Shown one piece after another: positions 8,575-63,528 of a DNA stretch of 64,000 nucleotides. The notes under the pieces were generated by a model. That model made no database searches. It had not been told where the DNA came from and saw only the letters and a list, made by a program, of their open reading frames with translations. Made by a program: the position numbers and the translations under genes. The stretch covers positions 1 to 64,000 of the IMG/VR virus record IMGVR_UViG_3300028025_003852. One strand, given 5' to 3'. The DNA is from a virus. Positions within the stretch are counted from its first letter, which is position 1; each line of letters starts with the position of its first letter.

Positions 8575-9015
8575 CTATGCCTTAAGTCCTATTCGAGAAA
8601 ATCGAACAGTAACTGGCGTTACAGCTGGGGTAACGGTTAGAGTAATGTTTCCAGAACTTTGAGAAACACTAACTGCTCCAAGTGTGCCGTCGTTATCTAA
8701 TATTCCATACTCTGTAACACTAACATTGTTTTTGTCCATAAGGACTGTTAGTTCTGTTGCATAAAATTTATTATTTGCACCGTCTGTTTTTGAAATAGAA
8801 ACAAGATACTTTACAACTCTCCATTGAGTTGCAGGAAAACTGTCAATAATTGTTGGTGAAGAAATTGCACTCAAGGTGTGCTCATTGTTACCAAATGATC
8901 CAAGATCTGTGCTCTGCTGAATCAGGGTGTCAATCAAATCAACATAGTCTGCACCAGTAGGAATATCTCCAGTTTCAAACTTTGATTTTAGTGTATTGAT
9001 ATCAATTCTAGCCAT
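8575..9015 (-). CDS. Putative virion structural protein
   Basis: LKSKFETGDIPT..DY.DLIDT N-terminus typical of tail-fibre-type proteins; beta-rich. Confidence 0.6.
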   Translation of the reverse strand: MARIDINTLKSKFETGDIPTGADYVDLIDTLIQQSTDLGSFGNNEHTLSAISSPTIIDSFPATQWRVVKYLVSISKTDGANNKFYATELTVLMDKNNVSVTEYGILDNDGTLGAVSVSQSSGNITLTVTPAVTPVTVRFSRIGLKA

Positions 9016-9032
9016 AGTAAAAGTATATCAGA

Positions 9033-9344: not shown

Positions 9345-9754
9345 TATGACACCACTGAGTTAGTAACATCCTCTAGAATGATCATGCTACCCTGGGCAAC
9401 TGTCCACACCCTTGTGGCATCTGAAAGCTCAATATCAAAGATGTCTCCAGTTTGAAGAACCGTAGATTGTTGTGGGGTAAGCTTTACTGTAAATTCTCCA
9501 GGACCGTCTGCAGCTGTTGCCTGTGGGAACAATGTCATACGCAAACTGGCGTTGTCTGTAATTGTTGGAGTTGTCTGGGCAACTGTTGGTCTCTTAATTT
9601 CCATCTCAATAGCCCAGTTGGCAATAGTTAAAGGAGCCTTTGCATCGTCTGTAACATACACTCTAAATGAAGCAGAGTCTCCACGAACAACTGTCCATGT
9701 GATAAATGGTGGGGTATTGCCAATAGAATACCCAGACCCTCTAGTAGTAGCCAT
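9344..9754 (-). CDS. Putative tail/baseplate adaptor (paralogous to 12761-13138)
   Basis: Shares WTVVRGD(S/T)A motif and F(D)..L....VWT...G.I...DVT ending with 12761-13138. Confidence 0.6.
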   Translation of the reverse strand: MATTRGSGYSIGNTPPFITWTVVRGDSASFRVYVTDDAKAPLTIANWAIEMEIKRPTVAQTTPTITDNASLRMTLFPQATAADGPGEFTVKLTPQQSTVLQTGDIFDIELSDATRVWTVAQGSMIILEDVTNSVVS

Positions 9755-9785
9755 GATTAAATTATACCATAACTAATTAATTGTA

Positions 9786-12045: not shown

Positions 12046-12761
12046 TATCCAAACGACACTAGCTGACCAAAGACAGCGTATGCCCCTCCATTATTCAAAA
12101 TACTAAAGCTGACAATGTCCTTCTTGTTAGCATTTCCAGGTGGGACGCTACCTCCCTGCCAGTTAATTGTTTGTGCTACACCAGCAATCTGAACAGCGGT
12201 AGGAATTCTTGCAGTACCACCCTGATTTAGAATTAGTGTTACCGTGGTTGCTGAACCTGCATCAAGTGCTAGGTTTGTAAGATTGACCGTAAAGTTTGCT
12301 GAAAGATTTGTGTGATTAAAAATATGCCCTAAAGAACAGTTATGCACAACCACACCAGTAGCTCCAGTTACGCTTGTAAATGTTTCTGAAACTTTTTTAA
12401 TTTTGAGAATGCTTGGATCTATCCAGGTTACTGCATAATCTGTTGGAGACTCTTTCCCTAAGTAGAAACCAGTGGTTCCTCCTGCTGGAACACCACTTCC
12501 GCTTGCTGCAACCAATTGCCATACGGCTGATCCAACTTGTGGAATTTGTCCAACTGTACCAGTTGCATTACGATACCATGTTGAACCATTGTATGTAACA
12601 ACATTACCAATTGGATATGTGGCTGAATTATTATAAGGACCAGAAAAAGACCAGAGTGCATTTTGTCCTGCTGGTCCTGTTGGTCCTTGAACTCCTTGTG
12701 GTCCTGCTGCACCTGTTTGTCCAGCGGAACCTGGGAATGGAACAATTTTAATTGTTGGCAT
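12045..12761 (-). CDS. Short collagen repeat plus carbohydrate-binding-like tail protein
   Basis: Start moved to MPTIKIV (TAATG overlap); GPQGVQGPTGPAG; Y..GNVVTYNGSTW. Confidence 0.7.
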   Translation of the reverse strand: MPTIKIVPFPGSAGQTGAAGPQGVQGPTGPAGQNALWSFSGPYNNSATYPIGNVVTYNGSTWYRNATGTVGQIPQVGSAVWQLVAASGSGVPAGGTTGFYLGKESPTDYAVTWIDPSILKIKKVSETFTSVTGATGVVVHNCSLGHIFNHTNLSANFTVNLTNLALDAGSATTVTLILNQGGTARIPTAVQIAGVAQTINWQGGSVPPGNANKKDIVSFSILNNGGAYAVFGQLVSFG

Positions 12762-13138
12762 TATAAACTTCCTCCTGTTACGTCTCCGATAACAGTGATT
12801 GTACCAATGACAGGTGTCCAAACAGTATCATCAATAGTTACCTGGAGATCAAAAGCTAATTCTGCGACTACTGCCTTGTATCCGATTCCCCAAAATTTTG
12901 TAATTTCTGCAGGTGCCGTAATTTCTACGTATCCACTTCCTGCAGATGTTTCAAGTTCGTCTAGAACATCTCCCTTAAAATCATATGCGTATGAAGCATA
13001 TTCCCAAGTTGATGTAGAATATTTTGTTACTTCGTCATCCTGTAAAAACTCTACACGAAGTACAGCGGTGTCGCCTCGAACGACAGTCCATTTCATGTTA
13101 TATGGATTTGCACCAAAAATATCAGCGACGGTAGTCAT
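12761..13138 (-). CDS. Putative tail/baseplate adaptor
   Basis: WTVVRGDTA motif; start MTTVAD just after a TATAAT. Confidence 0.6.
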   Translation of the reverse strand: MTTVADIFGANPYNMKWTVVRGDTAVLRVEFLQDDEVTKYSTSTWEYASYAYDFKGDVLDELETSAGSGYVEITAPAEITKFWGIGYKAVVAELAFDLQVTIDDTVWTPVIGTITVIGDVTGGSL

Positions 13139-13164
13139 AGTAATTCTATTATACACCACTAATA

Positions 13165-13213
13165 GGACTGGCACCCGAAAATAGTGGGTATGAGAGACGT
13201 TCGAGTGCCAGCC
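13165..13213 (-). ncRNA. Candidate antisense hairpin sRNA (14-bp stem, 20-nt loop)
   Basis: TATAAT (13225-13220) 6 nt upstream; two G-U pairs that only work on the minus strand; loop complementary to the mRNA at 62969-62980. Confidence 0.6.
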
Positions 13214-13222
13214 ATAATTATT

Positions 13223-13318
13223 ATAACATATTGTAACAATTTGATAACAAAAAAATAAAAATCATTGATATATCAACACTGTTATATAATCGTTACAACA
13301 TTGTTATAGAAACGTTAC
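13223..13318. promoter_or_regulatory. Arrays of GTTAY/RTAAC half-sites at 10-11 bp period (MtrA/GlnR-like boxes)
   Basis: GTTAY at 13281, 13292, 13303, 13314; RTAAC at 13223, 13233, 13244. Confidence 0.5.
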
Positions 13319-13433
13319 CAAATACATGCTCGGGGTATGCTATGGTATATAAAGATAATAGATACTAAGAAAACTCTCTCTTAGAGATAGCTTCTCAATA
13401 AAAGAAAAACAATCCGAAGGATTAAGGATAAGT

Positions 13434-13751
13434 CTATTCTTTATTAGACTTATTGTTAGATACATAGCTTATAAACATTTCTGTAAGCCTATCTATTTTT
13501 CCATCTATCTTTTCGTGGAACTGTTCTCCACGTTCATTCTGCTCTTTTAGATGAATCACATCTGTTTCAAGTCTAGTAACCTGATCCTTTATTGATGATC
13601 CACCATTTGGCTTAAGTTCATGTCTGATCTCTTCAAACTGTTCTTTGGCAAATGCCTTAATGTAGAATCTAAGAATAGCGAATAGAATTCCAGCTACTGC
13701 TGAAACGCCAATTATGATTGCTATAATAGCTTGCCACTCTTCAATTGTCAT
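13434..13751 (-). CDS. Single-pass membrane protein with coiled coil
   Basis: Hydrophobic N-terminus; PNGGSSIKDQVTRLE motif common in actinophage membrane proteins. Confidence 0.75.
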   Translation of the reverse strand: MTIEEWQAIIAIIIGVSAVAGILFAILRFYIKAFAKEQFEEIRHELKPNGGSSIKDQVTRLETDVIHLKEQNERGEQFHEKIDGKIDRLTEMFISYVSNNKSNKE

Positions 13752-14584: not shown

Positions 14585-14822
14585 TCCATACCCTGGACCT
14601 TCTGAAAAATTATTGTTTTTCGATTTGGACATTTTCTGAATATTTTGTATTTGTGAACGATACACACTTTACAGTAACAATTCAAGTAAATTAGTCCGCA
14701 CACTGGTATCCGCCCTGCCTCAAAAAATATTCTAATCTATTTTTAGACTTATCGGCGTGTCGCATTGTCATTGTCCGTGGTGCATGATAGGTTATAGATA
14801 ACAACAAAGAATGGATAACAAA

Positions 14823-14897
14823 ATGGAAACAGGTTGCTACTCAGAGTGTGAGTATGTGTGTGAGTGTGTGCAGTATAAGGTAGGTGCAAGCAAATGA
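14823..14897 (+). CDS. 24-aa Cys-rich peptide
   Basis: METGCYSECEYVCECV... first ORF after the 14772 promoter. Confidence 0.4.
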   Translation: METGCYSECEYVCECVQYKVGASK

Positions 14898-15031
14898 AGT
14901 GTGAAGTGTGTGACTACTTTGACGCTAATGAAGTCATGGTATACAAGACAGAGATACTTAACTTATCTATGGTAGTCATGTGTGACTATTGCTTTCACGA
15001 GATATTGGAGATGAAGAATGAAACGGTCTAA
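14894..15031 (+). CDS. Small zinc-finger-like early protein
   Basis: MKCEVC...MCDYC; ATGA coupling. Confidence 0.55.
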   Translation: MKCEVCDYFDANEVMVYKTEILNLSMVVMCDYCFHEILEMKNETV

Positions 15032-15149
15032 GGCGTACTATGTAACAAGGGGTATTGCTAGGGCATTGACTCTATTGGTCAAAGCATCTTTGGTTGTTGG
15101 TGTAGTGTATGTGTTTGTGTTGTTGTATTGGGGAGCATTCTATCCCTAA
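15018..15149 (+). CDS. Small membrane protein
   Basis: GGAG RBS; hydrophobic C-terminal half. Confidence 0.5.
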   Translation: MKRSKAYYVTRGIARALTLLVKASLVVGVVYVFVLLYWGAFYP

Positions 15150-15294
15150 CGGCGTGTCGCCTTGACATACCCCCAGATCCAGGGCCGGGCGGCCTGTGGA
15201 TAACTATGTTACCATTTCGTTATAAGAAACACCCTATATGGGCTTTACATTGTCCGTGGTCTGTGATAGTCTGAAGACATAAGATAAAGAAACA

Positions 15295-15352
15295 GAGAGA
15301 GTGAGCCTAGCAAATAAGGTCGCAAGACATGAGCCTAGCAAATAAATCTCTC
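15295..15352 (+). ncRNA. Two-fold symmetric 5'-leader RNA motif
   Basis: GAGAGA/TCTCTC outer stem, GTC-GCAA-GAC hairpin, identical 16-mers TGAGCCTAGCAAATAA on both sides. Confidence 0.5.
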
Positions 15353-15374
15353 AATAAAGAATAGGAAATAGAAA

Positions 15375-15569
15375 ATGACATTAGCAGAAACAGGAATCAA
15401 GCAAGACTTGACTATCGGTAACGTGGTTGCCATTAGCCGTAAAGGTGTAATTCGTGCAAGCGGAATCATCGAATCAGTAAAGCAAATTAACCAAGACCGC
15501 TTTGACGTAACTTTCACTAACGGAAAGACTGAGTCAATGGTATGGGGAAAGACGCTCACCGTAGTTTGA
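15375..15569 (+). CDS. Small early protein (SH3-like beta barrel?)
   Basis: ORF after promoter 15251; DLTIGNVV pattern. Confidence 0.6.
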   Translation: MTLAETGIKQDLTIGNVVAISRKGVIRASGIIESVKQINQDRFDVTFTNGKTESMVWGKTLTVV

Positions 15570-15616
15570 GTGTCAGACCCTCATGTTAGAATAAAAACAA
15601 CAAGAAAGGAAAACTA

Positions 15617-15760
15617 ATGTATATTGTAGAAGTAATCAAGAAGGGAGTCGGAGTCGTTGAGACTTTCGGCTCACGGTCTAAGGCAGAAGCAGAAGCACAA
15701 AAGAACGCTTATGCTCTCATGTATCCTGACCATGTAGTAATGATTGAATGGAGTAACTAA
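15617..15760 (+). CDS. 47-aa early protein
   Basis: Own promoter (15571) and GAAAGGA RBS. Confidence 0.65.
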   Translation: MYIVEVIKKGVGVVETFGSRSKAEAEAQKNAYALMYPDHVVMIEWSN

Positions 15761-15926
15761 CGGCGTGTCGGCTTGACATACCCTGGCAATCGGGGGCCGG
15801 GCGATCCGGCCGCCTGTGGATAACTATTTACGAGAATTATTCTACGAGGCGGAAAACTATGCCCTAAAAACTTTTCACTGTCCGTCGCCCATGTTAGAAT
15901 GAAGACGTAAAGAAAGGTAAACTAAA

Positions 15927-16106
15927 ATGGAAATCAAAGAAATCAGAAAGAACGGAATCGGAAACGGTTTCTCAGTAATCAACCCTCAAGATGGGTTCCG
16001 CAAGGATAACACCATCTGGAATGGCACTTGCTCAGAGTGTGGTGAACGAGTGTATAACTCAGTAATGACTAAGTATGAGTGGAAACACCAGACCAAGTGT
16101 GTTTGA
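15927..16106 (+). CDS. 59-aa early zinc-binding protein
   Basis: Own promoter and RBS; CSEC...H...C. Confidence 0.65.
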   Translation: MEIKEIRKNGIGNGFSVINPQDGFRKDNTIWNGTCSECGERVYNSVMTKYEWKHQTKCV

Positions 16107-16155
16107 CTGTCTGAGGCTACTGCTAAAATAAAGACATAAAGAAAGGATAACTAAA

Positions 16156-16278
16156 ATGAAAGAATGTTTCTTGTGTGATGAGGGCACTACTGCCACTACT
16201 GTATCACCATACAACTACCCCGTTTGTGCTAGCCACTACAGCGAAGACATCCGTGAATTCGCTACCGACTACTCATAG
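16156..16278 (+). CDS. 40-aa early zinc-binding peptide
   Basis: Own promoter and RBS; CFLC...CASH. Confidence 0.6.
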   Translation: MKECFLCDEGTTATTVSPYNYPVCASHYSEDIREFATDYS

Positions 16279-16309
16279 ACAATAACCAACAACGAAAGGT
16301 AAAACTAAA

Positions 16310-16471
16310 ATGACAAATCACGAACGTATCTCTGGAATCTTAGAGACAATTCGAATTGCAAAGGGTGCAGAGTCTCACTCTGACGTTATGCCCTATGTGA
16401 TAGGCATGATGACCGCCGTCCTCAACGACTCACAGCTTGAGGCTATGGAAGAGGTAGCCAAGCAATACTAA
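16310..16471 (+). CDS. 53-aa early protein
   Basis: ACAACGAAAGG RBS. Confidence 0.65.
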   Translation: MTNHERISGILETIRIAKGAESHSDVMPYVIGMMTAVLNDSQLEAMEEVAKQY

Positions 16472-16624
16472 CATATTCCAGAAATGGAATGTGGGGCCGG
16501 TTGATCCGGCCGCCCCTCTTCCTATTTACGAAGGCTATTAAAAACCCTGGACTTTTGACCGCTGGACTTTTCACTGTCCGACGTATCTGTTATTCTTGTA
16601 TTACAAACAACGAAAGGATAACTA

Positions 16625-16813
16625 ATGCGATTCGACCCTATTTTTGGTGAGGCTAACGAGATTGTTGGCTACCTCGACGACATGGGCAACGAGTGGACTG
16701 TCGAGCAGGTCGAGGACTACTGGGATGTCTCGGGCAACGAGCCTGACGGCATGTGGCTTGATGAGGACGCTCTCAACTCTATCGGCTGGGGTAGCGACGA
16801 GGCTTACTTCTAA
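16625..16813 (+). CDS. Highly acidic 62-aa early protein
   Basis: 17 D/E versus 1 R; ends DEDALNSIGWGSDEAYF. Confidence 0.75.
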   Translation: MRFDPIFGEANEIVGYLDDMGNEWTVEQVEDYWDVSGNEPDGMWLDEDALNSIGWGSDEAYF

Positions 16814-16927
16814 ACTACCCAAAGGGGGGCCGGGGGCCGTTATCAAATCGTTACATTGGATTACGTACATTACGTTTTCACTGTCAGTCGCTCGTGTTAT
16901 TCTTGTATTACAACGAAAGGAAAACTA

Positions 16928-17095
16928 ATGGACAAGCAAATACTGGTATCGGTTTGGGTGCTCAATCAGTGGGCAGAAAACGCTCGTGTTGAGCAGGAGT
17001 ACTGGATTGAGAACAACAACGACGGATTGGCAGGCTACTTCGGTGGTCGGGCTGCTGCCTATGAGTTTTTACTCGCTGAGTATGCCAAAGACTAG
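16928..17095 (+). CDS. 55-aa early protein
   Basis: Start MDKQIL after promoter and RBS. Confidence 0.65.
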   Translation: MDKQILVSVWVLNQWAENARVEQEYWIENNNDGLAGYFGGRAAAYEFLLAEYAKD

Positions 17096-17149
17096 TGTCA
17101 TAGGCTACTGCTAAACTAAAACTAACAACAACGAAAAGGACACAATAAA

Positions 17150-17335
17150 ATGATGACACGCAAAGACTATGTTTCAACTGCTAAGATTCTCAATGACCTT
17201 TGGCTTGATTTGCCAATCAGTAACATTGACCTGTTTGAGGATACCGTTATGGCTTTCTCTAAAATGTTTGCAGAAGATAACGAACGATTCGACCACAAGA
17301 TTTTTTATAACGCTTGTTTCAAGGAGGAATACTAA
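17150..17335 (+). CDS. Conserved small phage protein
   Basis: MMTRKDY...A.IL...F..DN.RFD...F..AC pattern. Confidence 0.75.
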   Translation: MMTRKDYVSTAKILNDLWLDLPISNIDLFEDTVMAFSKMFAEDNERFDHKIFYNACFKEEY

Positions 17336-17463
17336 TGAACCTGGTACCATTGTTTGCTGTAATGTTTGGGCTACTCGTAATCAATACCGTGATTATTTTG
17401 TACCTGTTGGCTAAATACAAAGAAGCCAAGCATGAGGCACAGATAAACCGACCACCCTTCTAG
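17335..17463 (+). CDS. 42-aa membrane protein ending PPF
   Basis: AAGGAGG RBS, TAATG coupling, hydrophobic N-terminus. Confidence 0.55.
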   Translation: MNLVPLFAVMFGLLVINTVIILYLLAKYKEAKHEAQINRPPF

Positions 17464-17551
17464 GAGGGCCGGACGATCTTCGTTATAAAGTTGTTACGAA
17501 GACCTTACGAAACGCCCTGGAAATGTCCGAGGTATCTGCTAAGATTAGTAT

Positions 17552-17719
17552 ATGAAGAAAAAGACCAAGCACAAAGCAACAGAAAACAAAGCCTACATCG
17601 AGGCTATGCGTGAGTTGCGTCGCTCCAATGCGGCTACTGCCCATGACAACCGACCTAACCGTCAACGCACTCGTGGTGCAGTCAAGGCTCATGCTATTGG
17701 AGAATACAAGGCTCTGTAA
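17552..17719 (+). CDS. Basic Arg-rich small actinophage protein
   Basis: ELRRSNAATAHDNRPNRQRTR...AI; leaderless after promoter 17524. Confidence 0.7.
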   Translation: MKKKTKHKATENKAYIEAMRELRRSNAATAHDNRPNRQRTRGAVKAHAIGEYKAL

Positions 17720-17785
17720 CTCAGTGGTTAGAGTGCCACCCTGTCACGGTGGAAGTCGCCAGTTCAAGTCTGGTCAGAGTCGCCA
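17710..17785 (+). tRNA. tRNA-Asp(GTC)
   Basis: Cloverleaf; anticodon arm CCACC-CTGTCAC-GGTGG; encoded CCA. Confidence 0.93.
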
Positions 17786-17786
17786 A

Positions 17787-17861
17787 TCCCCTTTAGCTCA
17801 ACGGCAGAGCAACGAGCTGTTAACTCGTAGGTTCTTGGTTCGAATCCAAGAGGGGGAGCCA
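17787..17861 (+). tRNA. tRNA-Asn(GTT)
   Basis: Anticodon arm ACGAG-CTGTTAA-CTCGT; TTCGAAT T-loop; encoded CCA. Confidence 0.95.
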
Positions 17862-24243: not shown

Positions 24244-24397
24244 GTATTCAATTAAGGTAGAACAAATTGGACATACCGTTGTAGAGGTTGAGGCTGAAGA
24301 TGAGTTTCAGGCTGAAGACATTGCAATGGAGATGTGGGGCAATGGTGAACTTGACCATCTCTTTATCTTTGATGTAGAACTAATTGTGGATAACTAA
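24236..24397 (+). CDS. Acidic DpnD/PcfM-like small protein
   Basis: KYSIKV...VEVEAEDEFQA. Confidence 0.6.
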   Translation: MSKYSIKVEQIGHTVVEVEAEDEFQAEDIAMEMWGNGELDHLFIFDVELIVDN

Positions 24398-26776: not shown

Positions 26777-26841
26777 TGTGCATAAAATGTGGATAAAATG
26801 TGCATAAGTTGTTCACAATATGTGCATATCCCTGTGCATAA
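26777..26841. promoter_or_regulatory. Cluster of six DnaA-box-like 9-mers
   Basis: TGTGCATAA 26777, TGTGGATAA 26788, TGTGCATAA 26799, TTGTTCACA 26809, TGTGCATAT 26821, TGTGCATAA 26833. Confidence 0.7.
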
Positions 26842-27133: not shown

Positions 27134-27289
27134 TTATTGCTCTTTTTCTCGAAGATCAGCCAATGCTCTCTCATACCCAATCTTCATTGCCACTACTTCT
27201 TCCCTATATGGATCACGACCAGAGTTACTTTGAGTAAATATCTTTAGTGACTCATATGCTTTTTCCATTTGTTTTGTGCTTGGTGTCAT
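27134..27289 (-). CDS. 51-aa hypothetical protein
   Basis: AAGGA RBS; tightly packed between neighbours. Confidence 0.5.
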   Translation of the reverse strand: MTPSTKQMEKAYESLKIFTQSNSGRDPYREEVVAMKIGYERALADLREKEQ

Positions 27290-29029: not shown

Positions 29030-29725
29030 ATGGATTATGTTTATGTATGTCGTGATGGCGACAATGAAGAGCTAAGGTATTCAATTAGATCGGTTGAAAG
29101 GAATATGCCACCTGGAAATATTTGGGTTGTCGGTGGCAAACCTGATTGGTACACAGGAAACTTTTTGCCTGTCGAACAAACAAACAAAGCATACAACAAT
29201 GTTCGTGAACAGATTAGGGTTGCGTGTTCTAATGAAGAAGTTAGCGATGACTTTGTTTTAATGAACGATGACTTTTTTGTTATTAATCCTGTAAAAGAAA
29301 TACCAACGTGGTATACAGGAACACTAGCAGATAGAATAGTTGGCTTGCAACAGATGAGATCTCATAACTCTGGCTACCTAAGACTTTTAATAGTAACTAA
29401 CAATGTAATCAAAAGAAGTGGTGTTGCAGATCCACTTGACTATGAAGTTCATGTACCAATGATTATGAATAAAGAAAAGGCTTTGGCTATTTTACGCTCA
29501 AATGCACTGTGGCGATCATACTATGGAAACAAATACAATGTTGGAGGGATAAGGCATGACGATGTAAAAATTCATAGCAACACTCTTCTTGAGGACAGAG
29601 GCAGAAATTTGATCGACGTGTCTACTGAGCCATACATATCTGGCAGCGATTACAATTTTGATTTTTTGAAAGATGCTATATTGGATAAGTTATTTCCTGA
29701 TGCATCTATTTGTGAGTCCCCCTAG
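29030..29725 (+). CDS. Stealth-like sugar phosphotransferase
   Basis: ELRYSIRSVE...PDW...FVLMNDDFF. Confidence 0.7.
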   Translation: MDYVYVCRDGDNEELRYSIRSVERNMPPGNIWVVGGKPDWYTGNFLPVEQTNKAYNNVREQIRVACSNEEVSDDFVLMNDDFFVINPVKEIPTWYTGTLADRIVGLQQMRSHNSGYLRLLIVTNNVIKRSGVADPLDYEVHVPMIMNKEKALAILRSNALWRSYYGNKYNVGGIRHDDVKIHSNTLLEDRGRNLIDVSTEPYISGSDYNFDFLKDAILDKLFPDASICESP

Positions 29726-29788
29726 AGAGATTCGAACTCCCGACCTGTAGGGTAGAAACCTATTGCTCTTCCGCTGAGCTATAGAGGG
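29717..29788 (-). tRNA. tRNA-Arg(TCT)
   Basis: Acceptor CCCTCTA/TAGGGGG; anticodon loop TTTCTAC; TTCGAAT T-loop; no CCA. Confidence 0.85.
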
Positions 29789-30729: not shown

Positions 30730-30803
30730 TAGGGCAGATGGGGCTTGAACCCACTATCGATACCTTATAAGAGTATTGCATTTACCAGTTATGCTACTGC
30801 CCC
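30730..30803 (-). tRNA. tRNA-Ile(TAT)
   Basis: Anticodon arm ATACT-CTTATAA-GGTAT; acceptor GGGGCAG/CTGCCCT; discriminator A. Confidence 0.85.
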
Positions 30804-39274: not shown

Positions 39275-39535
39275 TTAATCAATTGCCTTTCTGGTAATTT
39301 GTACAACAGCACCATTATCTTCTAGTGCATGTTTTACTTTGAATAGGTATCTTACTGCTTCGATCTTGCCATCGTAGTCCAGTCGCATAAACGCCTGCTC
39401 GTCAGCAATAATCTCTAAGAACAATAATACACCATTATCACTGTGTTCCGCAATAGCTACCCCAAAATTTTTTGGAGGATGAATTGAGTGAACCGCCCTA
39501 CGCATTTCATTTGTGTAAAAACTAATCTCAGTCAT
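39275..39535 (-). CDS. Hypothetical protein
   Basis: Coupled ORF. Confidence 0.7.
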   Translation of the reverse strand: MTEISFYTNEMRRAVHSIHPPKNFGVAIAEHSDNGVLLFLEIIADEQAFMRLDYDGKIEAVRYLFKVKHALEDNGAVVQITRKAID

Positions 39536-39812
39536 TTGTCAGATTCCTCCACGTTTCTGCCCAATCCTGTTTCGATCTATGAGAGTTAAACTCTTTTGAT
39601 ATTTTTCCATTTTCTAGGTATACCCCACCCCAGACACCCCACTCTTTATTTGAGACACCTGTGGCAAAACACATTCTGCGTACTGGGCATTCTGAACAAA
39701 CCTTATCTACTGCAAGTCTAAAACTTTCATTCTCTTCATACTTATCAAAGAATATGTTAGTGTCATAGCCTAGGCATTTAGCGTTGTCTCTCCAAGTGTG
39801 GTCACTTTGCAT
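39528..39812 (-). CDS. whiB: WhiB-family transcription factor
   Basis: W...AKC...FF...CSECPVRRMC...GVWGG. Confidence 0.92.
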   Translation of the reverse strand: MQSDHTWRDNAKCLGYDTNIFFDKYEENESFRLAVDKVCSECPVRRMCFATGVSNKEWGVWGGVYLENGKISKEFNSHRSKQDWAETWRNLTND

Positions 39813-48873: not shown

Positions 48874-49246
48874 TAAAAATCTCCAACCTTTCACGAATTG
48901 TTTCTACATCTTCTGGTGTTCCAAATATTTCTATCATGCCAAGAATTGGAACATCTGTTTTCTTAGCAATCAGTTTGGCAGCCTTGCAGTAGTCTTTGCC
49001 AAAATTAGTATTGCCAAATCCAACGACTGCCTTTAGCAATTCTCTATTTGTTTTAATATTTAGAAAGGTTGCTACTGGTCTTGGGATGGCATAATCATTT
49101 TTACCACCGCCATAGGTTGGTACAAAAAGAACGTACTCACGAGTAGCAAATGGAAGCTCCTCAACTGAGTACGATCTATCATACCCTAACTTTTCAACAA
49201 AACGTTTGGTGTTGCCAGAACGGTTTGAGAAGTATACTATATCCAT
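48860..49246 (-). CDS. nrdI: Flavodoxin NrdI
   Basis: [25 protein letters not shown]. Confidence 0.95.
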
Positions 49247-55696: not shown

Positions 55697-56028
55697 CAGA
55701 ATCTTACACCATGCTTTTCTGGTCGTGACTTGTTAAGGTTAGTCTTGTTTTCAAAAGCGTGGTCCAAAGAAACGCGAGTGTACCCATGCTCAACCAAGCC
55801 TGCATAAAGATCTAGTGTTCGGATAAGGATATCTGCCATCTCATCTGAAATCTCATGCTCACCCTTATTTTTACGAATAGCCTCCATTACTTCTACAGCC
55901 TCAGAGACAATCATCATAAGCTGTTTAGTAATAAAGATGTCATCTACATCTTCAGGCCAGAAGCCTTTTTCTACAGCGGTCTTGTGCAATTGCTCGCATA
56001 GATCGTCAAACTCAATTTTGTCATTCAT
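55696..56028 (-). CDS. MazG-like nucleotide pyrophosphohydrolase
   Basis: SEAVEVMEA...EMADILIR..D. Confidence 0.85.
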   Translation of the reverse strand: MNDKIEFDDLCEQLHKTAVEKGFWPEDVDDIFITKQLMMIVSEAVEVMEAIRKNKGEHEISDEMADILIRTLDLYAGLVEHGYTRVSLDHAFENKTNLNKSRPEKHGVRF

Positions 56029-59000
56029 TATTTGATATCCTCCAATATAGTTGTTCCATCTTTTGTTTTTGCAAATGAAAAGTTATACACATTTCCTTCT
56101 TGTACTTTCATGTAGGCCTTTGGGAACTGTGTTGGGAAGACTGTAACAGAGTGTAATTCTCGTCCAGAGTCTGCCACAACCATGTATGCCATCTTCTTGC
56201 CTGCCTTAGTTACTCGTGGTTTAAACGATATCACCATCATCTCTTCTTCCTTATATGGAAGCATACGATAGTTCATATACTTAATCAGCGAAGAGTCAGA
56301 CTCTTTAATATCATCTACTGGTACAGCAAACGAGATTCGGTTATCACTGGCTAGAATCAGGTATGTTTTTCCTGCCTCAATTAGAGTGTCCTCATTGTCG
56401 AAGATTCCAGCAACACCAGTCTTATCTAGAATTTCTACTCTAGACCATCCCTTACCTCGCTTGATATTCTTCACTATACCCATCAGAACGAAGGAACCCT
56501 TCTCCTCGTACTCTTCTGTATCTGTAATATACGCATTGTAGTGTGATGGTACAGAGATGTTAAACTCTGGTAGGTTTAGGTACTCGTATAGATTTTGACG
56601 GATGTCTTCATCGTTTCGTGGGTTATCCTCAAATGTAGCTGCACCGATGAGTCGTAGTGCTGAAAGTGCACGAGAGTTTACTCCGTTACCCTTGCCAAAT
56701 GTGAACTCTTCCAGCTCTTTGTATGAGCTAAATGGTCGTGCAGAGATATACTTCTGAGCAATATTGTCAGAGATATATTTGATTGCACTAAGTCCAAACC
56801 GAATACCCTTACCCTCGATCTTGAAGTCAATGTCAGAGTCATTGATGTGTGGCAACTTGATGGAGATACCCATACGCTTTGCCTCAATCAGGTATTCTGT
56901 ACGAGCATCTTTGTCCTTCTCATTCTTAAGAAGAGCAAACATAAACTCAATTGGGTAGTGGTACTTTAGCCATGCAGTCCAGTATGAGACCGTAGAATAG
57001 GCTACAGCGTGACTCTTATTGAATGAGTAGCCAGCATGTGCCTCAAAGTCATGCCAAAGGTTTCTGGCACCCTCTTCTCCAAGATACTGTGTAGCACCCT
57101 GCACAAACTTGTCCTGGAACTGATCGAACTCCTTGGCATCCTTCTTCTTACCAATAATCTTACGAACCTTATCGGCTTCTGCCATTGACATACCGCCAAG
57201 TTCCACACAAGCCTGCATAACCTGTTCCTGATACAGAATACAGCCATACGTTTCTTGTGTAAATGTTTTCATAACTTGGTGATGATATGAGATATTCTGC
57301 TTGCCATGCTTACGAGCAATATAGTCTTTACCAATTGTATTCATAGCACCTGGACGCACCAAAGCATTTGATGCAGCAAGCTCTGAGAAGTTCTTTACCC
57401 CCATCTTTACGAGTAGGTTTGTATATGGGGTAGCCTCACACTGGAAGACACCTTTTGTAAAACCATCAGAGAGCATTCCGTACACGTTCTTATCTTGCAT
57501 GTCAATGTCGTGAAGTTCAATCACGTCACCTGTACGCTCTTTGATAATTGCAATAGTGTCTTGAATAACAGATAGAGTCTTTAGACCAAGAGCATCAATC
57601 TTAATAAGACCAATACGCTCTGCCTCTTCCATGTCAACGGCAACGACAGGGATACGCTCCTTGCTTCCTGGCGATGTGCGTGTCTCTAGTGGTGCATACT
57701 TAAAGATAGGCTCTTTTGCAGTAACAACACCAGCAGCATGAATACCAGTACCACGAATTCGACCTCGAAGCTGTTCTCCATACATCTCTACCTCTGGGTA
57801 CTTTTCACGGAACCATTCAGTAGACTTTGAGTTGCAGTAGTCGTCCCAATCGTCAACAAGCTTTAGTACCTTGTTCACATCTGGCAAAGGGATCATAAGC
57901 ACACGAGCAATGTCACGCACCATACCCTTACCCTTGAACTGCAAGAATGTTGCAATAGATGCTACGTGTCGGTATTGACGAACAAGGTAGTCCTTGACTT
58001 CTTCACGACGTGAGTCCTGGATATCTGTATCAATATCTGGGAAGTCATTACGTTCTGGATTAATAAAACGGAAGAACAAGAGGCCATGCTCAATAGGATC
58101 AATGTCTGTGATGCCAAGTGCATAGCATAGAAGAGAACCAGCAGCAGATCCACGACCTGGACCTACCATGATGCCCTCCTTCTTTGCCCACGCAATCATA
58201 GAGCGTACAACCAAGAAGTATGGACCAAAGTTCTTGTCCTTAATTACCTGTAACTCTTCATCTAGACGATCTAGGTATTCCTGATTCTCTGCAAACCCAA
58301 GAGCAGTGAGACCCTCCATAGCAAGATTACGAAGCTCATCATTTGGCTTCTGATACTGCACTGGCAACAGGTCCATGTGGTCTTCGATATTGTAGTCTTC
58401 AATCTTATCTACAATCTCAAGAGTATTCGAATAGATATCTTCACGGTCAATGCCCTGAGCAGTCATAGCCGAACGCATCTCTTCGTCAGACAAAAGATGA
58501 ATCTCAAACTTGTTAAAAGTCATCTGTCGGTCTGCACCATAAAGGTAGTCAAGTCGATCCATAAGATTGTCATACTCACGAGACTTATCAAATGAAGCAT
58601 TCTTATCAGTCTTATTTGAGTATGAGTTTAGAATCAGTTTTAGCTCTTGAATCTCTTTCTGTCCTGGGTCTGAGTGATGACAGTCTGGTGTAGTAATTGG
58701 CTTAATGCCAAACTCATCAGCCAGCTCTAGGATAATCTTGTTAATCTCTGGTGGGTTGTGTGGCATTACCTCGATGTAGTAGTCGTCACCAAAGGTATCC
58801 TTAGCCCACTGAAGATGAAACTTCGCTGCTGCTAGATTGTCTGCCTCAATAGCCTTTGCTAGATATCCACTTAGACATCCAGATGTAATTACTAGCCCCT
58901 CTTTATATTTCTCAAGAATAGACCAGTCCATTCGTGGCTTCTTGTAGAAACCCTCTGTCCATGCAATCTCGTTAAGTTTATTTAGGTTCTCTAGACCCTT

Positions 59001-59300
59001 TGCATTCTTAGCAAGAATGATAAGGTGATTATAGTTAAGGTCTAGAGGGTCGTTCTTGTCCTTCTTATCCTCATGGTCGTGGCGGTCTTTTGCAATATAC
59101 CCCTCAATACCAAGGATAGGCTTAATTCCTGCTTCTTTAGCAGCACGATACATTTCACGGTGTCCAGATAGCGAACCATGATCGGTAATCGCAATAGCTG
59201 GCATTCCTAGTGCGACGGCTCTGTCAACATATTCCTGTGGTGTAGCAATACCGTCAAATAGCGAGTAGTGGGTGTGAACGTGTAGTCCAGCGTAACTCAT
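56028..59300 (-). CDS. dnaE: DNA polymerase III alpha subunit with PHP domain
   Basis: HVHTHYS, TDHG, GRGSAAGS, PDIDTD, KIDALGL, YSFNKSH. Confidence 0.97.
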   Translation of the reverse strand: MSYAGLHVHTHYSLFDGIATPQEYVDRAVALGMPAIAITDHGSLSGHREMYRAAKEAGIKPILGIEGYIAKDRHDHEDKKDKNDPLDLNYNHLIILAKNAKGLENLNKLNEIAWTEGFYKKPRMDWSILEKYKEGLVITSGCLSGYLAKAIEADNLAAAKFHLQWAKDTFGDDYYIEVMPHNPPEINKIILELADEFGIKPITTPDCHHSDPGQKEIQELKLILNSYSNKTDKNASFDKSREYDNLMDRLDYLYGADRQMTFNKFEIHLLSDEEMRSAMTAQGIDREDIYSNTLEIVDKIEDYNIEDHMDLLPVQYQKPNDELRNLAMEGLTALGFAENQEYLDRLDEELQVIKDKNFGPYFLVVRSMIAWAKKEGIMVGPGRGSAAGSLLCYALGITDIDPIEHGLLFFRFINPERNDFPDIDTDIQDSRREEVKDYLVRQYRHVASIATFLQFKGKGMVRDIARVLMIPLPDVNKVLKLVDDWDDYCNSKSTEWFREKYPEVEMYGEQLRGRIRGTGIHAAGVVTAKEPIFKYAPLETRTSPGSKERIPVVAVDMEEAERIGLIKIDALGLKTLSVIQDTIAIIKERTGDVIELHDIDMQDKNVYGMLSDGFTKGVFQCEATPYTNLLVKMGVKNFSELAASNALVRPGAMNTIGKDYIARKHGKQNISYHHQVMKTFTQETYGCILYQEQVMQACVELGGMSMAEADKVRKIIGKKKDAKEFDQFQDKFVQGATQYLGEEGARNLWHDFEAHAGYSFNKSHAVAYSTVSYWTAWLKYHYPIEFMFALLKNEKDKDARTEYLIEAKRMGISIKLPHINDSDIDFKIEGKGIRFGLSAIKYISDNIAQKYISARPFSSYKELEEFTFGKGNGVNSRALSALRLIGAATFEDNPRNDEDIRQNLYEYLNLPEFNISVPSHYNAYITDTEEYEEKGSFVLMGIVKNIKRGKGWSRVEILDKTGVAGIFDNEDTLIEAGKTYLILASDNRISFAVPVDDIKESDSSLIKYMNYRMLPYKEEEMMVISFKPRVTKAGKKMAYMVVADSGRELHSVTVFPTQFPKAYMKVQEGNVYNFSFAKTKDGTTILEDIK

Positions 59301-59364: not shown

Positions 59365-60015
59365 TTACCAGTCAGTGTTCGTTGAAGAAGTTACTGATGG
59401 TGTGTCGAATCCAAAGTAGAAAGCCTCTTGCTCTGAATATGGGATTTCACGAAGGACAGCTTCCAAGTCGTTCATCTCAAGTGCAGACCAATCGAATGGC
59501 TCGGTGTCTGGACCCTTTGGAATAAGGGTGTAGTTTGTCTCAGTACCCTGACCGTTACGCTTGATCTTCCATGTCAGGTTAGAGATTCCATTGGTATCGC
59601 CATAGAACTCCATAAGAGTTGGCACAGCCGACTGCTTGCTAATGCCCTGTGACCAAACAGCTACGTATGGAGACTCAAGTCCGTCGTCAACGAGGACGTT
59701 GCAGTAGAAGCGATTACGTGCTCGCCAGCCTGCCTTGGGGTCCTTACGAGCCATCTCACAGCCGTAGCAACGGCCCTCTGAGTCCATACTACAAGCAGCC
59801 TTACGCTTGTAGTCCTTTGGGTTAGTGTGTTCTGCATACACCACAGCAAGACCACGGTCTTCTGAGAAGTGTGCAGAGTCTGCGTCAAGCTCTTCTACAA
59901 AGCGGATAGTCGCAGATTGTCCATCAGCAAGCTTGAGCCAACGGACCTTAGTTCCTTCATATTTTGGTTTTTCGAGTAGGGCGTTGATATTCTTAATTCC
60001 CTTAATTGCACTCAT
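59365..60015 (-). CDS. gp32-like single-stranded DNA-binding protein
   Basis: KLADG...IRF, H/C zinc ligands, KIKRNGQGTETNY, acidic-aromatic tail. Confidence 0.75.
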   Translation of the reverse strand: MSAIKGIKNINALLEKPKYEGTKVRWLKLADGQSATIRFVEELDADSAHFSEDRGLAVVYAEHTNPKDYKRKAACSMDSEGRCYGCEMARKDPKAGWRARNRFYCNVLVDDGLESPYVAVWSQGISKQSAVPTLMEFYGDTNGISNLTWKIKRNGQGTETNYTLIPKGPDTEPFDWSALEMNDLEAVLREIPYSEQEAFYFGFDTPSVTSSTNTDW

Positions 60016-60039: not shown

Positions 60040-60984
60040 TTAGTTTAGCATAGATATGATTGACTTGTCAAACGAGACTTCTAGTTTCGTCAGTTCTTCA
60101 TCAGCCATATCTCCAATATCCTTGTATTTGTTATCTAGTTGTATTGTGTTTACACGAGATCCAAGCTTATCAATAATCTTAGATTTCATATTCCCTCCTG
60201 CATCATCATTATCTGCAATAACAATTACGTTATTGAAGTATTTTTTGAGCAGGTCAATTTGGTAGTTTGATACGTTGGCTCCCAATGTTGCTACCGCTGG
60301 AAGCCCTACCTGGTCAAGGCGTATAACATCGAATGATGATTCGACAATATAAACCCTGTCTGCTGTCTTTACCCTGTGGAGGTTAAACAGAAGTTTTGAT
60401 TTAGGAAGTCCTGGAGTATTCTTAAACTCTTTTCCTTCTACAGATCTACCAACAAAGCCTACAGCCATGCCGTCTGGAGAATGGACAGGAATAGTCACCA
60501 TGTCTTGCTTTTCAGAATATCCAAGAGCAAACTTGTTTACGGAATGTTCTGTAATAAAACGTCCTGAATAGTATCTCATTGCACGAGGTGATTCGATTGC
60601 CTGTTGGTTTAATCTTTTAACCATTAGCTCATCGAACTGTTTGTAGTCTGGCTTATCGATCAGACGCTTTCCGACCTCAGCTTCAAGATTGCTTTCTGTT
60701 CTTTTAGAGTTAACAAAACGCACAGCTTCAAAGTATGTACGACCAGAAACATGCATCACAAGCTCTACTAGATTTGAGACGTGGTGACAAGAAAAACAAA
60801 AGAATATTCCAGACTGCTTGTCTACTTCTCCAGCAGGTGTTCTATTGTTTGCGTGGAATGGGCAATAAATGATATAGTCAGAGTCAACCTCGGACTCAAT
60901 GTCTACGCCTGTTCCTCGGAGTACTCTTGTAATTTGCTCTTCTGTAAAGGTATCGCTACCGTTCCGTCTATTCCCTCTATGCAT
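60040..60984 (-). CDS. dnaG: DNA primase (zinc finger + TOPRIM)
   Basis: CPFH...CFSC; VES.FD; DNDDAG; KDIGD. Confidence 0.9.
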   Translation of the reverse strand: MHRGNRRNGSDTFTEEQITRVLRGTGVDIESEVDSDYIIYCPFHANNRTPAGEVDKQSGIFFCFSCHHVSNLVELVMHVSGRTYFEAVRFVNSKRTESNLEAEVGKRLIDKPDYKQFDELMVKRLNQQAIESPRAMRYYSGRFITEHSVNKFALGYSEKQDMVTIPVHSPDGMAVGFVGRSVEGKEFKNTPGLPKSKLLFNLHRVKTADRVYIVESSFDVIRLDQVGLPAVATLGANVSNYQIDLLKKYFNNVIVIADNDDAGGNMKSKIIDKLGSRVNTIQLDNKYKDIGDMADEELTKLEVSFDKSIISMLN

Positions 60985-61241: not shown

Positions 61242-62462
61242 CTAGTTATCTTCAAAGTCTTTGTACTTATATGTACCCTTGTCAAAATCAGCCTGCACCA
61301 TGAATTCACCCATAAAACCATTACGATTCTTACGAAAAACACACTCTATAATGTCGGAGTTTGTACCACGACCAAGAGCCATAACCCAGTCAGCATCGTA
61401 TGCAATCTGTCGTGACCAAGCGGTCTGACCAAGTGTTGGAACAGTGTCTAGCTTAGTTACATCATCTGGTGTTGCTGATGAGATAGCAATAATGGGAACC
61501 TCTTCTGAAATAGCCATAAGCTTTAGTTCACGAGAAAGGTTTTTCATTCGAACAGTTTCGTTGTCTGACTTTTGGTTTGGCGACATAAGCTGCAAATAGT
61601 CTACAATAACAAAGTCTGGTTTGTACTGATCTATCTTACCACGCAATACTGAGGGCGTAATCTCTCCACCAGAATCATTTGAAATAATGTGAAACTCTGG
61701 CTTTCCTGCAAGATTTTTCGTGTGCCAAGATTTTAGCATATCAAGCTCTACCTGACCAGCAGAAAGCTTTCTGTGTGACCAAAGGCCTTCCCCCATAATT
61801 GTAAAGACACGATTACGAACCTCTGTCTCACTCATCTCAAGGCTAACAACCATTGGAGACTTGCCCTGCTTCCATGCCTGTACCGCAAAATAAAGCGATA
61901 GCCATGACTTTCCAATACCTGGATAAGCAAGGAATACTCCAAGCTGTCCTGGCGTAATTCCAGCAGGAAGGTAGTTGTCGAAACCCGGAAGACCAGTCTT
62001 GATTCCTGTGAACCCTAGAGCAGCCTGCTCTTGAACATTTGTATAGTATGCAATCGCATCATCAATATCTGTAACATCAATATCACGGATTGCAGAAGTG
62101 TTCTTCTTTAGTTCTGATGTCATTGTAATCAATGACTCAAGTACCTCTACACCCTTACCACCTTGAATATCTGTAGCTGCTGTGCGAACAATGTCCTTTA
62201 GACTATCATTAAGGTACTCTGCCTGTAGTTCTTCTAGGTGGTGCTTTGTTGCCCCTACCCCAGAAACTGGCTCAAAGTCACGGAACTTCTCAACAACTAG
62301 TGCTGTTGGTGGAACCGTGCCATTATGATCAAAGTAGTTACGAACAAACTGCCAGATATCATTATGAGTACGTAGCATGTTGTCTACGTTTGCCTGAAGC
62401 AAAACGTGGACCTGCTTATCCTCTAACACAGCAGAGATAAGCTTTGCCTCTGAATTACTCAT
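61242..62462 (-). CDS. dnaB: DnaB-like replicative helicase
   Basis: AYPGIGKS, SLEMS, IVDYLQL, YDAD, KNRNG. Confidence 0.93.
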   Translation of the reverse strand: MSNSEAKLISAVLEDKQVHVLLQANVDNMLRTHNDIWQFVRNYFDHNGTVPPTALVVEKFRDFEPVSGVGATKHHLEELQAEYLNDSLKDIVRTAATDIQGGKGVEVLESLITMTSELKKNTSAIRDIDVTDIDDAIAYYTNVQEQAALGFTGIKTGLPGFDNYLPAGITPGQLGVFLAYPGIGKSWLSLYFAVQAWKQGKSPMVVSLEMSETEVRNRVFTIMGEGLWSHRKLSAGQVELDMLKSWHTKNLAGKPEFHIISNDSGGEITPSVLRGKIDQYKPDFVIVDYLQLMSPNQKSDNETVRMKNLSRELKLMAISEEVPIIAISSATPDDVTKLDTVPTLGQTAWSRQIAYDADWVMALGRGTNSDIIECVFRKNRNGFMGEFMVQADFDKGTYKYKDFEDN

Positions 62463-62763
62463 TTAACCATTCCTTTGCTCTAGCCCTACGCTCTTGTCGT
62501 TCTTTCTCGTCTACCTTTTGTTGCCGAACAGCAGAAATAATACTGTCAGCATAGTTTGCAAAATACTTCCAACTTGGCGATGGAGCAACATCAAAGTAAT
62601 ACTCCAACAGGTCGTAGCATTGTGGCAAGCCGTATGATTCAATTAATGCATCTGCTGCCCATTGCTCAACATTCAAATTCAACAATGGCTTTTTCTCATG
62701 CTTTATAACATAAAGCTTGGAATACCTACTGAGCAAAGCCATACGATCTTTGCGTTCAGCCAT
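62455..62763 (-). CDS. Hypothetical protein upstream of helicase
   Basis: Coupled ORF. Confidence 0.7.
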   Translation of the reverse strand: MAERKDRMALLSRYSKLYVIKHEKKPLLNLNVEQWAADALIESYGLPQCYDLLEYYFDVAPSPSWKYFANYADSIISAVRQQKVDEKERQERRARAKEWLNE

Positions 62764-62969
62764 TACTCTTTAATTTCAGACTTAGCTTCGTTAATCTTTT
62801 CAACAAGCTTTGATTCAACGAATGCGTACACTCGCTCAAATGCTTCTGTGATGTTCTCTCCATCACGACGTGAGTCAACTACACCAAGATCGATTCGTAG
62901 TGACTGGAAGTTGCCAAGGTTAAGTGTGTAACCCAATGTAACATTTACCTTTGTTTCTTCGTTATTCAT
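62763..62969 (-). CDS. Conserved small phage protein
   Basis: LGYTLNLGNFQSLRID motif. Confidence 0.8.
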   Translation of the reverse strand: MNNEETKVNVTLGYTLNLGNFQSLRIDLGVVDSRRDGENITEAFERVYAFVESKLVEKINEAKSEIKE

Positions 62970-62991
62970 CTCTCATACCCCTTTCGAAGGC

Positions 62992-63528
62992 TTAAATACT
63001 TTCTGACCAAACAGGAATAAACCTGCCGTCTTCTGTTCTCGTATATGTCAGTATACCACTGCCTAAACGGCGTGTCAACTCTTGTCTAGTAGGAGTTATA
63101 TCGTTTGTGATAAGCTTATCCTTTCTTGGTCTTCCCATGTGATAGGTAGAAAGTATATCACGAATTTCGTAAACCTGCGATTCTGAATAGTAGCACCTTA
63201 TCTGCCACCCTCTTTCTCCGCCCTTGGATGCCCCCCTAGGCTCTGGAATGATCCCACGCTTCATGAGACTAGGCATATATTTTCTATGACGATTTACTAA
63301 GATAGCTACTTCTCCAACAGTATACGCTCGTTCTCTATTCTTCTTAAAGTCTCCTACTAGACAACTTTCAAGTTGATCCTTGTTCATATTGTAGACAGAC
63401 ATAATGCCGTTAGATTTTCCTAAATGATGTACCCTGACCAAATCGCCATTAAGAAACCATACCTTTTTGCTACCAGGTATTACTGGTGCAGAGTTATAGG
63501 CCTGTCTGTCAAATCCTGGGGATGGCAT
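62992..63528 (-). CDS. MerR-like HTH DNA-binding protein
   Basis: YTVGEVAILVNR...GIIPEP...R.YSE. Confidence 0.7.
   Translation of the reverse strand: MPSPGFDRQAYNSAPVIPGSKKVWFLNGDLVRVHHLGKSNGIMSVYNMNKDQLESCLVGDFKKNRERAYTVGEVAILVNRHRKYMPSLMKRGIIPEPRGASKGGERGWQIRCYYSESQVYEIRDILSTYHMGRPRKDKLITNDITPTRQELTRRLGSGILTYTRTEDGRFIPVWSESI

Follow-up and report, generated by a model that had tools for sequence, protein, structure and literature searches.

A conserved hairpin RNA gene of uncultured phages with loop complementarity to the start region of a replication operon

The DNA analysed here (the window) is a stretch of 64,000 nucleotides (nt), positions 1 to 64,000 of the IMG/VR viral record IMGVR_UViG_3300028025_003852, which is 72.8 kb long and estimated to be 67% complete. 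Its minus strand carries, directly behind a promoter-like sequence, a small hairpin whose loop is complementary to the translation start of a gene located ahead of dnaB. This hairpin, the RNA family to which it belongs and its candidate target are the subject of this report.

A hairpin and its complement at a replication-operon start

The hairpin locus contains the following features, in which sRNA stands for small RNA and P1 for the promoter of the hairpin.

13281..13308, minus strand: conserved upstream motif pair of the TATAAC-n-TTGTAAC type, 55-85 nt upstream of the P1 -10 element; possible regulator-binding site
13220..13247, minus strand: promoter P1 (TTATCA, 16 nt, TATAAT, with TG); its extended -10 is present in 60/60 distinct loci of the family
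13166..13213, minus strand: sRNA hairpin, likely +1 at G13213; called from sequence, fold and family covariation
13186..13199, minus strand: seed (loop bases), complementary to 62967..62980 through 12 Watson-Crick pairs, then one G-U and one G-C pair

As read from the sequence, the hairpin (13213..13166) comprises a 14-base-pair (bp) stem, with a 5' arm at 13213..13200 and a 3' arm at 13179..13166, that encloses a 20-nt loop (13199..13180). RNAfold reproduced this stem with an energy of -22.3 kcal/mol (z -2.8), and 4/200 shuffled sequences folded as well. Two of the stem pairs are G-U, at which the opposite strand would have A-C. The TATAAT at 13225..13220 is preceded by TGT, giving a perfect extended -10 element, TGTTATAAT (13228..13220), and is followed by 6 bases and then the hairpin; the -35-like TTATCA is spaced 16 nt from TATAAT, and the promoter has 10/12 matches with the TG present. 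A previous interpretation of this DNA (the sequence-only reading) had described both the TATAAT with its 6-nt distance and the stem with two G-U pairs that would be A-C on the plus strand, and our analysis confirmed these points; the boundary that it had given, 13165, is one base too far, as the hairpin ends at 13166.

Loop positions 13197..13186 are the exact complement of 62980..62969 of the minus strand (GGGTATGAGAGA), i.e. of -11..+1 of a gene encoding 68 amino acids (aa). This 12-nt match, which the sequence-only reading had also reported, proved to be longer, since two further pairs (T opposite G and G opposite C) extend it to 14 bp and cover the whole ATG. The target region is organised as follows (ORF, open reading frame).

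63050..63058, minus strand: TGGTATACT, resembling an extended -10 and located some 80 nt ahead of the 68-aa ATG; may be the promoter of the target operon
62967..62980, minus strand: predicted target site, -11..+3 of the 68-aa gene, including part of the purine-rich ribosome-binding region and the ATG
62763..62969, minus strand: 68-aa gene, phrog_5189; product modelled as a beta-hairpin and a long helix
56028..62763, minus strand: replication genes behind the 68-aa gene (102-aa ORF, DnaB, 108-aa ORF, primase, SSB, Pol III alpha)
62455..62763, minus strand: 102-aa ORF
61242..62462, minus strand: DnaB
60040..60984, minus strand: primase
59365..60015, minus strand: SSB
56028..59300, minus strand: Pol III alpha
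27167..27178, minus strand: second exact 12-mer copy, within an ORF of 51 aa; could be a further site, restricted to this genome

There is an overlap of 1 nt between the stop codon of the 68-aa gene and the next ATG, and one of 8 nt between the 102-aa ORF and dnaB, so that the adjoining of these genes noted previously was seen directly; such overlaps would fit translational coupling. The sequence context of TGGTATACT is shared by two related records (G006 and G010). The 68-aa protein has at least 594 relatives in viral contigs; no Pfam family was found for it and its fold matches in the PDB were not significant (best E 2.1).

The loop-target duplex has a computed energy of -26.6 kcal/mol, or -23.6 kcal/mol once the 3.0 kcal/mol needed to open the target site is taken into account, and no significant structure was detected in the 5' region of the 68-aa gene (z +0.84). 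When the whole 72.8-kb record was scanned, the site at 62980 was the best partner of the loop, the antisense strand of the loop itself aside. Allowing one mismatch, the 12-mer matches 4 times in the window against 0.24 expected, a number that none of 100 shuffles reached. Two of these matches had been missed by the sequence-only reading, namely the second exact copy listed above, whose 51-aa ORF lacks homologues in the other 7 full records, and a copy with one mismatch at 49175..49186, inside an ORF that resembles NrdI by eye only. A distance of 49.8 kb separates the sRNA gene from its target, which is on the same strand, and the hairpin is not encoded opposite the target, as would be the case for a cis-antisense RNA of the sar/OOP type. 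As a side observation, an out-of-frame ATG within the target (62976..62974) opens a mini-ORF of 4 codons whose TAA overlaps codons 2-3 of the 68-aa gene, and in several relatives the ATG paired with the loop is the true start codon.

No description of this hairpin element appeared among the papers listed by literature searches. A DNA search with 12900..13500 against the phage collection gave 0 matches, and Rfam 15 at the gathering threshold reported only five tRNAs in the window and no family for the hairpin. When Rfam was applied to 13050..13350, the best E values were 1.5-9, with scores far under threshold, and the 6C RNA was not matched at E up to 10.

Conservation of the RNA family

Downstream of the hairpin lie a second promoter-like sequence, P2, and the gene from which the search for relatives could be anchored.

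13136..13153, minus strand: promoter-like P2 and leaderless start (-10 TATAAT at 13153..13148, 9 nt, ATG at 13138..13136, no Shine-Dalgarno sequence)
12761..13138, minus strand: 125-aa gene, first of the tail-fibre cassette, weak match to phrog_1084

The 125-aa protein has 27 relatives in viral contigs, and the hairpin was present upstream of the homologous gene in 23/23 protein-anchored loci with enough flanking sequence. These loci share one layout, in which an extended -10 is followed by 6-8 nt, the hairpin, usually a U-tract, a second extended -10, 6-9 nt and an ATG. Their stem sequences differ and their loop core is the same. An alignment of 13 distinct sequences (MAFFT/RNAalifold) gave 11 consensus pairs, 5 of which show compensatory changes; the extended -10 and the loop core ATACCCAC are invariant in it, the loop being more conserved than the stem. 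A covariance model (R1) built from this alignment found 5 more copies among 36 records picked solely because they carry the 68-aa gene.

The family was then enlarged by a pattern scan of viral contigs, which gave at least 120 matches; among the 80 loci listed, 58 fold strongly, and 43 of these 58 were kept after removal of 9 that lacked the architecture by eye, 3 from records already in hand and 3 duplicates. Together with 18 earlier loci this made 61, all matching the model, and 60 distinct rows, from uncultured viral contigs. In the 60-row alignment, which was fitted to the model and for which the 13-sequence alignment serves as the independent check, compensatory changes occur at 11/11 stem pairs, and 96.1% of the cells are paired compared to 27-44% when the partner is slid; the covariation score was reached by 0/500 shuffles. 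As 65/637 cells are G-U, the strand matters. The extended -10 is located 6-8 nt before the stem in all 60 loci, 18 of which had not been selected by a pattern demanding it, and 51/60 have a U-tract after the stem. The element is thus a gene for a strand-specific hairpin RNA, conserved both as a whole and in its loop, and we consider it very probable that this RNA is real and functional.

These data also bear on a role in cis, in which the hairpin would be a promoter-proximal terminator or insulator before the tail-fibre cassette, perhaps with regulated read-through, and in the window a 5' stem-loop stabilising the P1 transcript, with the loop as a protein-binding site. Such a role would agree with the fixed place of the hairpin between the upstream gene and P2 in every locus, with the stem and U-tract of 51/60 loci, with the motif pair upstream of P1, which suggests regulated transcription, and with the loss of the U-tract in the lineage of the window, where read-through is plausible. 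However, the cassette has its own P2, which is kept in relatives without the hairpin, so that read-through from P1 is not needed; an invariant 8-nt loop core is not required for a terminator; and the co-varying complementarity 50 kb away, described below, would be left unexplained. We therefore regard a function confined to cis as distinctly unlikely. It should be noted that the canonical features of an intrinsic terminator (GC-rich stem, 3-8-nt loop, U-tract) are not all present, the loop being 20 nt long and the window copy having no U-tract.

The layout of P2 (extended -10, 6-9 nt, ATG) recurs in relatives, including those without the sRNA, and would give the tail-fibre cassette a leaderless or near-leaderless start. 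Two relatives without the sRNA (G011 and G019) keep P2 directly before the leaderless gene, which indicates that the sRNA is a unit separate from the promoter of the 125-aa gene.

Several weaker candidates were rejected as members of the family. The R1 match in G021 (E 0.018) corresponds to another and larger structure in a comparable position: at about 1500-1633 of this locus (L119), an RNA structure of about 100 nt replaces the hairpin, following a P1-like TGCTACAAT and preceding an extended -10 and a leaderless ATG. Matches to R1 with E 0.14-1 are ordinary pairs of a terminator and a promoter, and the 15-mer matches in L303, L305, L307, L333 and L336 are chance matches in GC-rich DNA. The Streptomyces phage Mildred21 gave no R1 match, a result from one record only that is no evidence on its group.

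The start of the 68-aa gene as a candidate target

The complementarity was followed in 24 viral records that contain both loci by comparing the loop with -28..+12 of the 68-aa gene. The longest Watson-Crick run was 12 in 1 record, 10 in 5, 9 in 3, 8 in 9, 7 in 4, 6 in 1 and 5 in 1, so that at least 7 contiguous pairs are found in 22/24 records, and the paired segment always lies within -18..+3. The perfect pairing claimed by the sequence-only reading therefore holds for this genome (12-14 bp) and is reduced to 7-10 bp in relatives, and to 5-6 bp in two of them; likewise, its expectation that complementarity would be kept in relatives is borne out in these 22 records and fails in G057 and G072.

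In eight fully fetched records, start regions were ranked by duplex energy, with rough gene calls. The numbers of other starts that bind the loop at least as well as the 68-aa site were 0/122, 7/173, 1/81, 2/74, 0/177, 1/155, 1/78 and 2/85, i.e. two at most in 7/8 records. Under a liberal null that takes the best in-frame start of each ORF, the 68-aa site ranked 1/123, 23/174, 1/81, 5/74, 2/177, 1/155, 4/78 and 4/85, thus between 1 and 5 in 7/8 genomes, so that the proposed comparison with all start regions places it at or close to the top in most of them. Recurrence in the top-7 lists is seen for the 68-aa family alone (6/8 genomes, plus rank 1 in G000); no other family appeared among the top phage targets in more than 3/8 genomes, and the other entries are mostly internal start candidates. 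Opening the site costs 2.1-3.5 kcal/mol in 7/8 genomes and net energies range from -9.0 to -23.6 kcal/mol, values from which the target sites are predicted to be accessible. These values were obtained from loop-only duplexes and opening energies, RNAcofold of the full sRNA with the target being uninformative, as a loop-mRNA helix with the stem closed is a pseudoknot.

The pairing also co-varies in part. The paired segments are made of GGGTAT and GAGAGA in the window and of GGGTAT and GAAA or GAAG in other lineages; in G002 and G003 the segment is GTGGGTAT, and in G007 and G012, whose targets lack the GGGTAT core, 10 and 9 bp are kept through the CT-rich part of the loop, which pairs with the purine run only. 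Beyond a 6-nt core, cognate flanks add 44 bp over 18 distinct combinations compared to 28.8 +/- 4.2 when permuted (p 0.0004, or 0.008 with G-U allowed, both values ignoring shared ancestry), in agreement with the covariation that had been expected of related phages. For example, GAAA in the target faces TTTC in the loop in G010, and GAAG in the target faces CTTC in G056, so that within one clade of identical stem an A-T pair in the former corresponds to a G-C pair in the latter. When cognate and non-cognate energies were compared in an 8x8 matrix, the diagonal averaged -17.9 and the off-diagonal -15.4 (p 0.006), a weak test, given that all pairs have the core pairing in common and that G006 is nearly a duplicate of G010. 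The RNA family thus has a conserved, partly co-varying complementarity to one start region.

A coincidental 12-mer in an ordinary terminator-like repeat would be compatible with the copy at 27167..27178 in an unrelated ORF and with the ease with which CT-rich loops match purine-rich start regions. It is disfavoured by the covariation of the family, the invariance of the loop, the match in 22/24 records and the top ranks among starts, and we regard it as highly improbable.

We propose that the RNA is a trans-acting antisense sRNA that represses the operon for the 68-aa protein, the 102-aa protein, DnaB, primase, SSB and Pol III alpha, a reading to which we give about an even chance of being correct. 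The extended -10 of P1 would start transcription at the foot of the single 14-bp hairpin and, in most relatives, the U-tract right behind the stem would terminate the RNA after about 55-60 nt. The 20 unpaired nt of the loop would act as a seed for pairing in trans with the 68-aa gene, 50 kb away, at its translation-initiation region, and would occlude part of the ribosome-binding region and the start codon. As the pairing would cover these elements, a block of 30S binding is the most likely outcome, and translation of the 68-aa gene would fall; through the overlapping stops and starts, that of the 102-aa protein and DnaB would be lowered as well. Production of the RNA, repression by pairing, its spread to dnaB and its time of action are all inferred.

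A number of observations weigh against this proposal. The window copy and those of its two closest relatives (L002 and L003) are among the 9/60 without a U-tract after the stem, so in the window a longer P1 transcript may begin with the hairpin; moreover, the terminator scan did not call the hairpin and U-tract of L004, which it missed because its rule (loop of 3-8 nt) is exceeded by the loop. Among sequencing runs containing the stretch, no RNA runs were listed. G057 (6 bp) and G072 (5 bp) possess the sRNA and have poor complementarity, the 68-aa site of G001 ranks only 23/174, and uncompensated changes occur in G048 and G058 (C opposite A) and in G057 (C opposite A at the edge of the core). 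The start-region motif GGGTATGA is also present in G011 and G019, which show P2 and no hairpin (these records are fragments, 62% and 49% complete). Ranks and statistics ignore shared ancestry, and the gene calls are rough. In most lineages the AC on the 3' side of the invariant loop core has no pairing partner in this target, which means that the loop is under some other constraint as well. Finally, a single type of extended -10 is found at P1, at P2 and at the site ahead of the target; there is consequently no hint of the RNA being later than its target.

The excess conservation of the loop leads to two other explanations. The RNA could be a genuine trans-acting sRNA whose main targets lie elsewhere, in host mRNAs or in phage mRNAs with GTGGGTAT-like starts, the match to the 68-aa gene being minor or inherited. 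The invariant loop core indeed exceeds what pairs with the 68-aa site in most lineages, G057 and G072 keep the sRNA without a match, a promoter-proximal start of G001 scores -22.4 compared to -13.8 at its 68-aa site, and the target search covered phage genes alone. Against this stand the lack of any other gene family among the top phage targets in more than 3/8 genomes and the co-variation of the flanks with the 68-aa target, and we hold this possibility to be unlikely. Alternatively, the RNA could serve as a decoy or a ligand for a protein or the translation apparatus instead of pairing with an mRNA. Its loop, which contains the complement of a start codon beside a C-run, may bear a loose likeness to an anticodon loop; a loop conserved more strongly than pairing with one target requires and a simple single hairpin would suit such a role. 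Yet no protein partner is indicated and the 5' part of the loop varies in step with the sequence of the target, which a decoy would not predict and which makes a decoy very unlikely in our view.

Under the proposed repression of the replication operon, the sequence-only reading had gone further and seen a switch from replication to morphogenesis controlled from the head of the structural arm. The hairpin heads a tail-fibre and lysis cassette and not the whole arm, and no temporal sign of a switch was found; as the type of promoter gives no hint of timing, the switch is put forward here as a possibility. In its broadest form, which we find doubtful, the RNA would be a family-wide timer in virulent freshwater actinophages: produced from the tail-fibre region, it would accumulate and shut off the helicase-primase-Pol III operon through one start site and coupling, the upstream motif pair setting the timing via a phage regulator.

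Known antisense RNAs and the genomic setting

The c4 RNA of P1 and P7 and the sar RNA of P22 are immunity antisense RNAs that block the start region of ant. The present RNA resembles them as a small phage hairpin RNA whose loop pairs with a ribosome-binding region and prevents translation, here by prediction. It has no sequence or Rfam relation to them, and whereas they are encoded beside or opposite their target in immunity regions of temperate phages, it lies 50 kb from its target, ahead of a tail-fibre cassette, and would act on a replication operon. DicF of the Qin prophage, which represses ftsZ translation, is likewise a short (pro)phage sRNA that blocks initiation by pairing with a start region, but its target is a host gene, it depends on Hfq, it is processed from a longer transcript and its sequence is unrelated. 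The actinobacterial 6C RNA and RNAIII of Staphylococcus aureus act independently of Hfq through C-rich loops that pair with G-rich ribosome-binding sequences, and a terminator hairpin can carry the seed. The present RNA shares with them a seed in a hairpin loop with a C-run and differs in being a single hairpin, phage-encoded and without Rfam match. The proposed task is that of RegA of T4, a protein that occupies the starts of early and replication mRNAs and so represses their translation; the effector here would be an RNA, with one conserved target as far as seen. Should the timer described above prove true, RegA would have a counterpart made of RNA, and the passage of a lytic phage from replication to assembly would for the first time have been traced to a trans-acting sRNA.

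The lambda sRNA PreS (LPR1) is reported to be Hfq-dependent and to enhance translation of the host dnaN (10.1101/2024.10.31.621285; PMC12197685). PreS and VpdS of the vibriophage VP882 are reported as trans-encoded phage sRNAs that base-pair and affect DNA replication in the lytic cycle, as is proposed here (10.1101/2024.10.31.621285; PMC12197685). By contrast with PreS, the present RNA is predicted to repress the operon of the phage itself, in a probable actinophage. To our knowledge, Hfq is generally absent from Actinobacteria. The target is known for only a few phage sRNAs, nearly all from Hfq-using enterobacterial or Vibrio phages. A 2025 review, searched by term, names no example from Actinobacteria (PMC12197685). 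The distance from the target, the phage's own replication operon as target, the seed in the loop of a single hairpin and the probable actinophage origin set the present RNA apart from known phage sRNAs. It is a compact, easily recognised RNA gene with a covariance model by which the family can be annotated, and a directly testable case of RNA control of phage replication genes. Should the target prove wrong, the finding of a new and conserved family of phage RNAs would stand.

The host is probably an actinobacterium, as suggested by a gene for a WhiB-family transcription factor (39528-39812, minus strand; PF02467, E 4e-13) and by the nearest cultured relatives, which are Streptomyces phages (DnaB 41% identical). 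Among 50,697 records, the 68-aa protein was found only in Streptomyces phages, and Mildred21 has the same gene order of small protein, small protein, helicase, small protein and primase. A pattern scan of genome contigs gave 5 matches, 4 of them true hairpins; the labels of these 4 contigs from metagenome-assembled genomes (Beijerinckiaceae for 2, Actinomycetota, uncultured Bifidobacterium) disagree, and no host was drawn from them. The sequencing runs containing this DNA are labelled subsurface, freshwater, lake water, aquatic or metagenome, mostly with small shares, and no habitat was drawn.

The cassette behind the 125-aa gene encodes tail-fibre-like proteins, including a collagen-like fibre of 1194 aa, a glycosyltransferase and a peptidase/endolysin-like protein. 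On the other side of the hairpin, the gene at 13434..13751 encodes a small membrane-type protein and is followed by a short hairpin with a T-run, read by eye as its own terminator. Upstream of P1, a conserved pair of motifs of the TATAAC/TGATAAC type was noted at 13231-13250 and 13281-13308 of the window, with equivalents in G001-G012. Related pairs occur 20-85 nt upstream of the sRNA promoter in 8/8 full records, and motif clusters are confined to this site in G000, G007 and G012. These pairs may bind a regulator.

Extended -10 sites number 16 in the window compared to 6.7 expected, and 14/16 are on the minus strand; P1 and the site some 80 nt ahead of the 68-aa gene are among the 16; P2, which has TG directly before its TATAAT, is not one of them. 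At five minus-strand positions (9015-9030, 9754-9769, 13136-13153, 43905-43923 and 45764-45779) a -10 element stands only 6-9 nt before an ATG with no Shine-Dalgarno sequence, four of them with the extended TGNTATAMT and the remaining one (13136-13153) being P2. This arrangement points to mRNAs with little or no leader, as would suit an actinobacterial host. The locus is a further instance of leaderless genes with extended -10 elements in these uncultured phages.

Three further observations concern the window as a whole. At 14749-17548 (plus strand), an array of small genes contains between its genes 5 repeated units of about 60 nt, each with a box containing TTGACA, a GC-rich hairpin and, as a strong ribosome site, AAAGGA, which looks like a repeated early promoter/terminator cassette. 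The DnaA-box-like 9-mer TTATCCACA is present in 5 copies against 0.72 expected, at 15195-15203, 15815-15823, 24385-24393 and 26788-26796 on the minus strand and 49842-49850 on the plus strand; in the L008-L027 lineage it is also found some 40 nt ahead of P1. The five tRNA genes are located at 17710-17858 on the plus strand and at 29717-29788, 30730-30803 and 44949-45019 on the minus strand.
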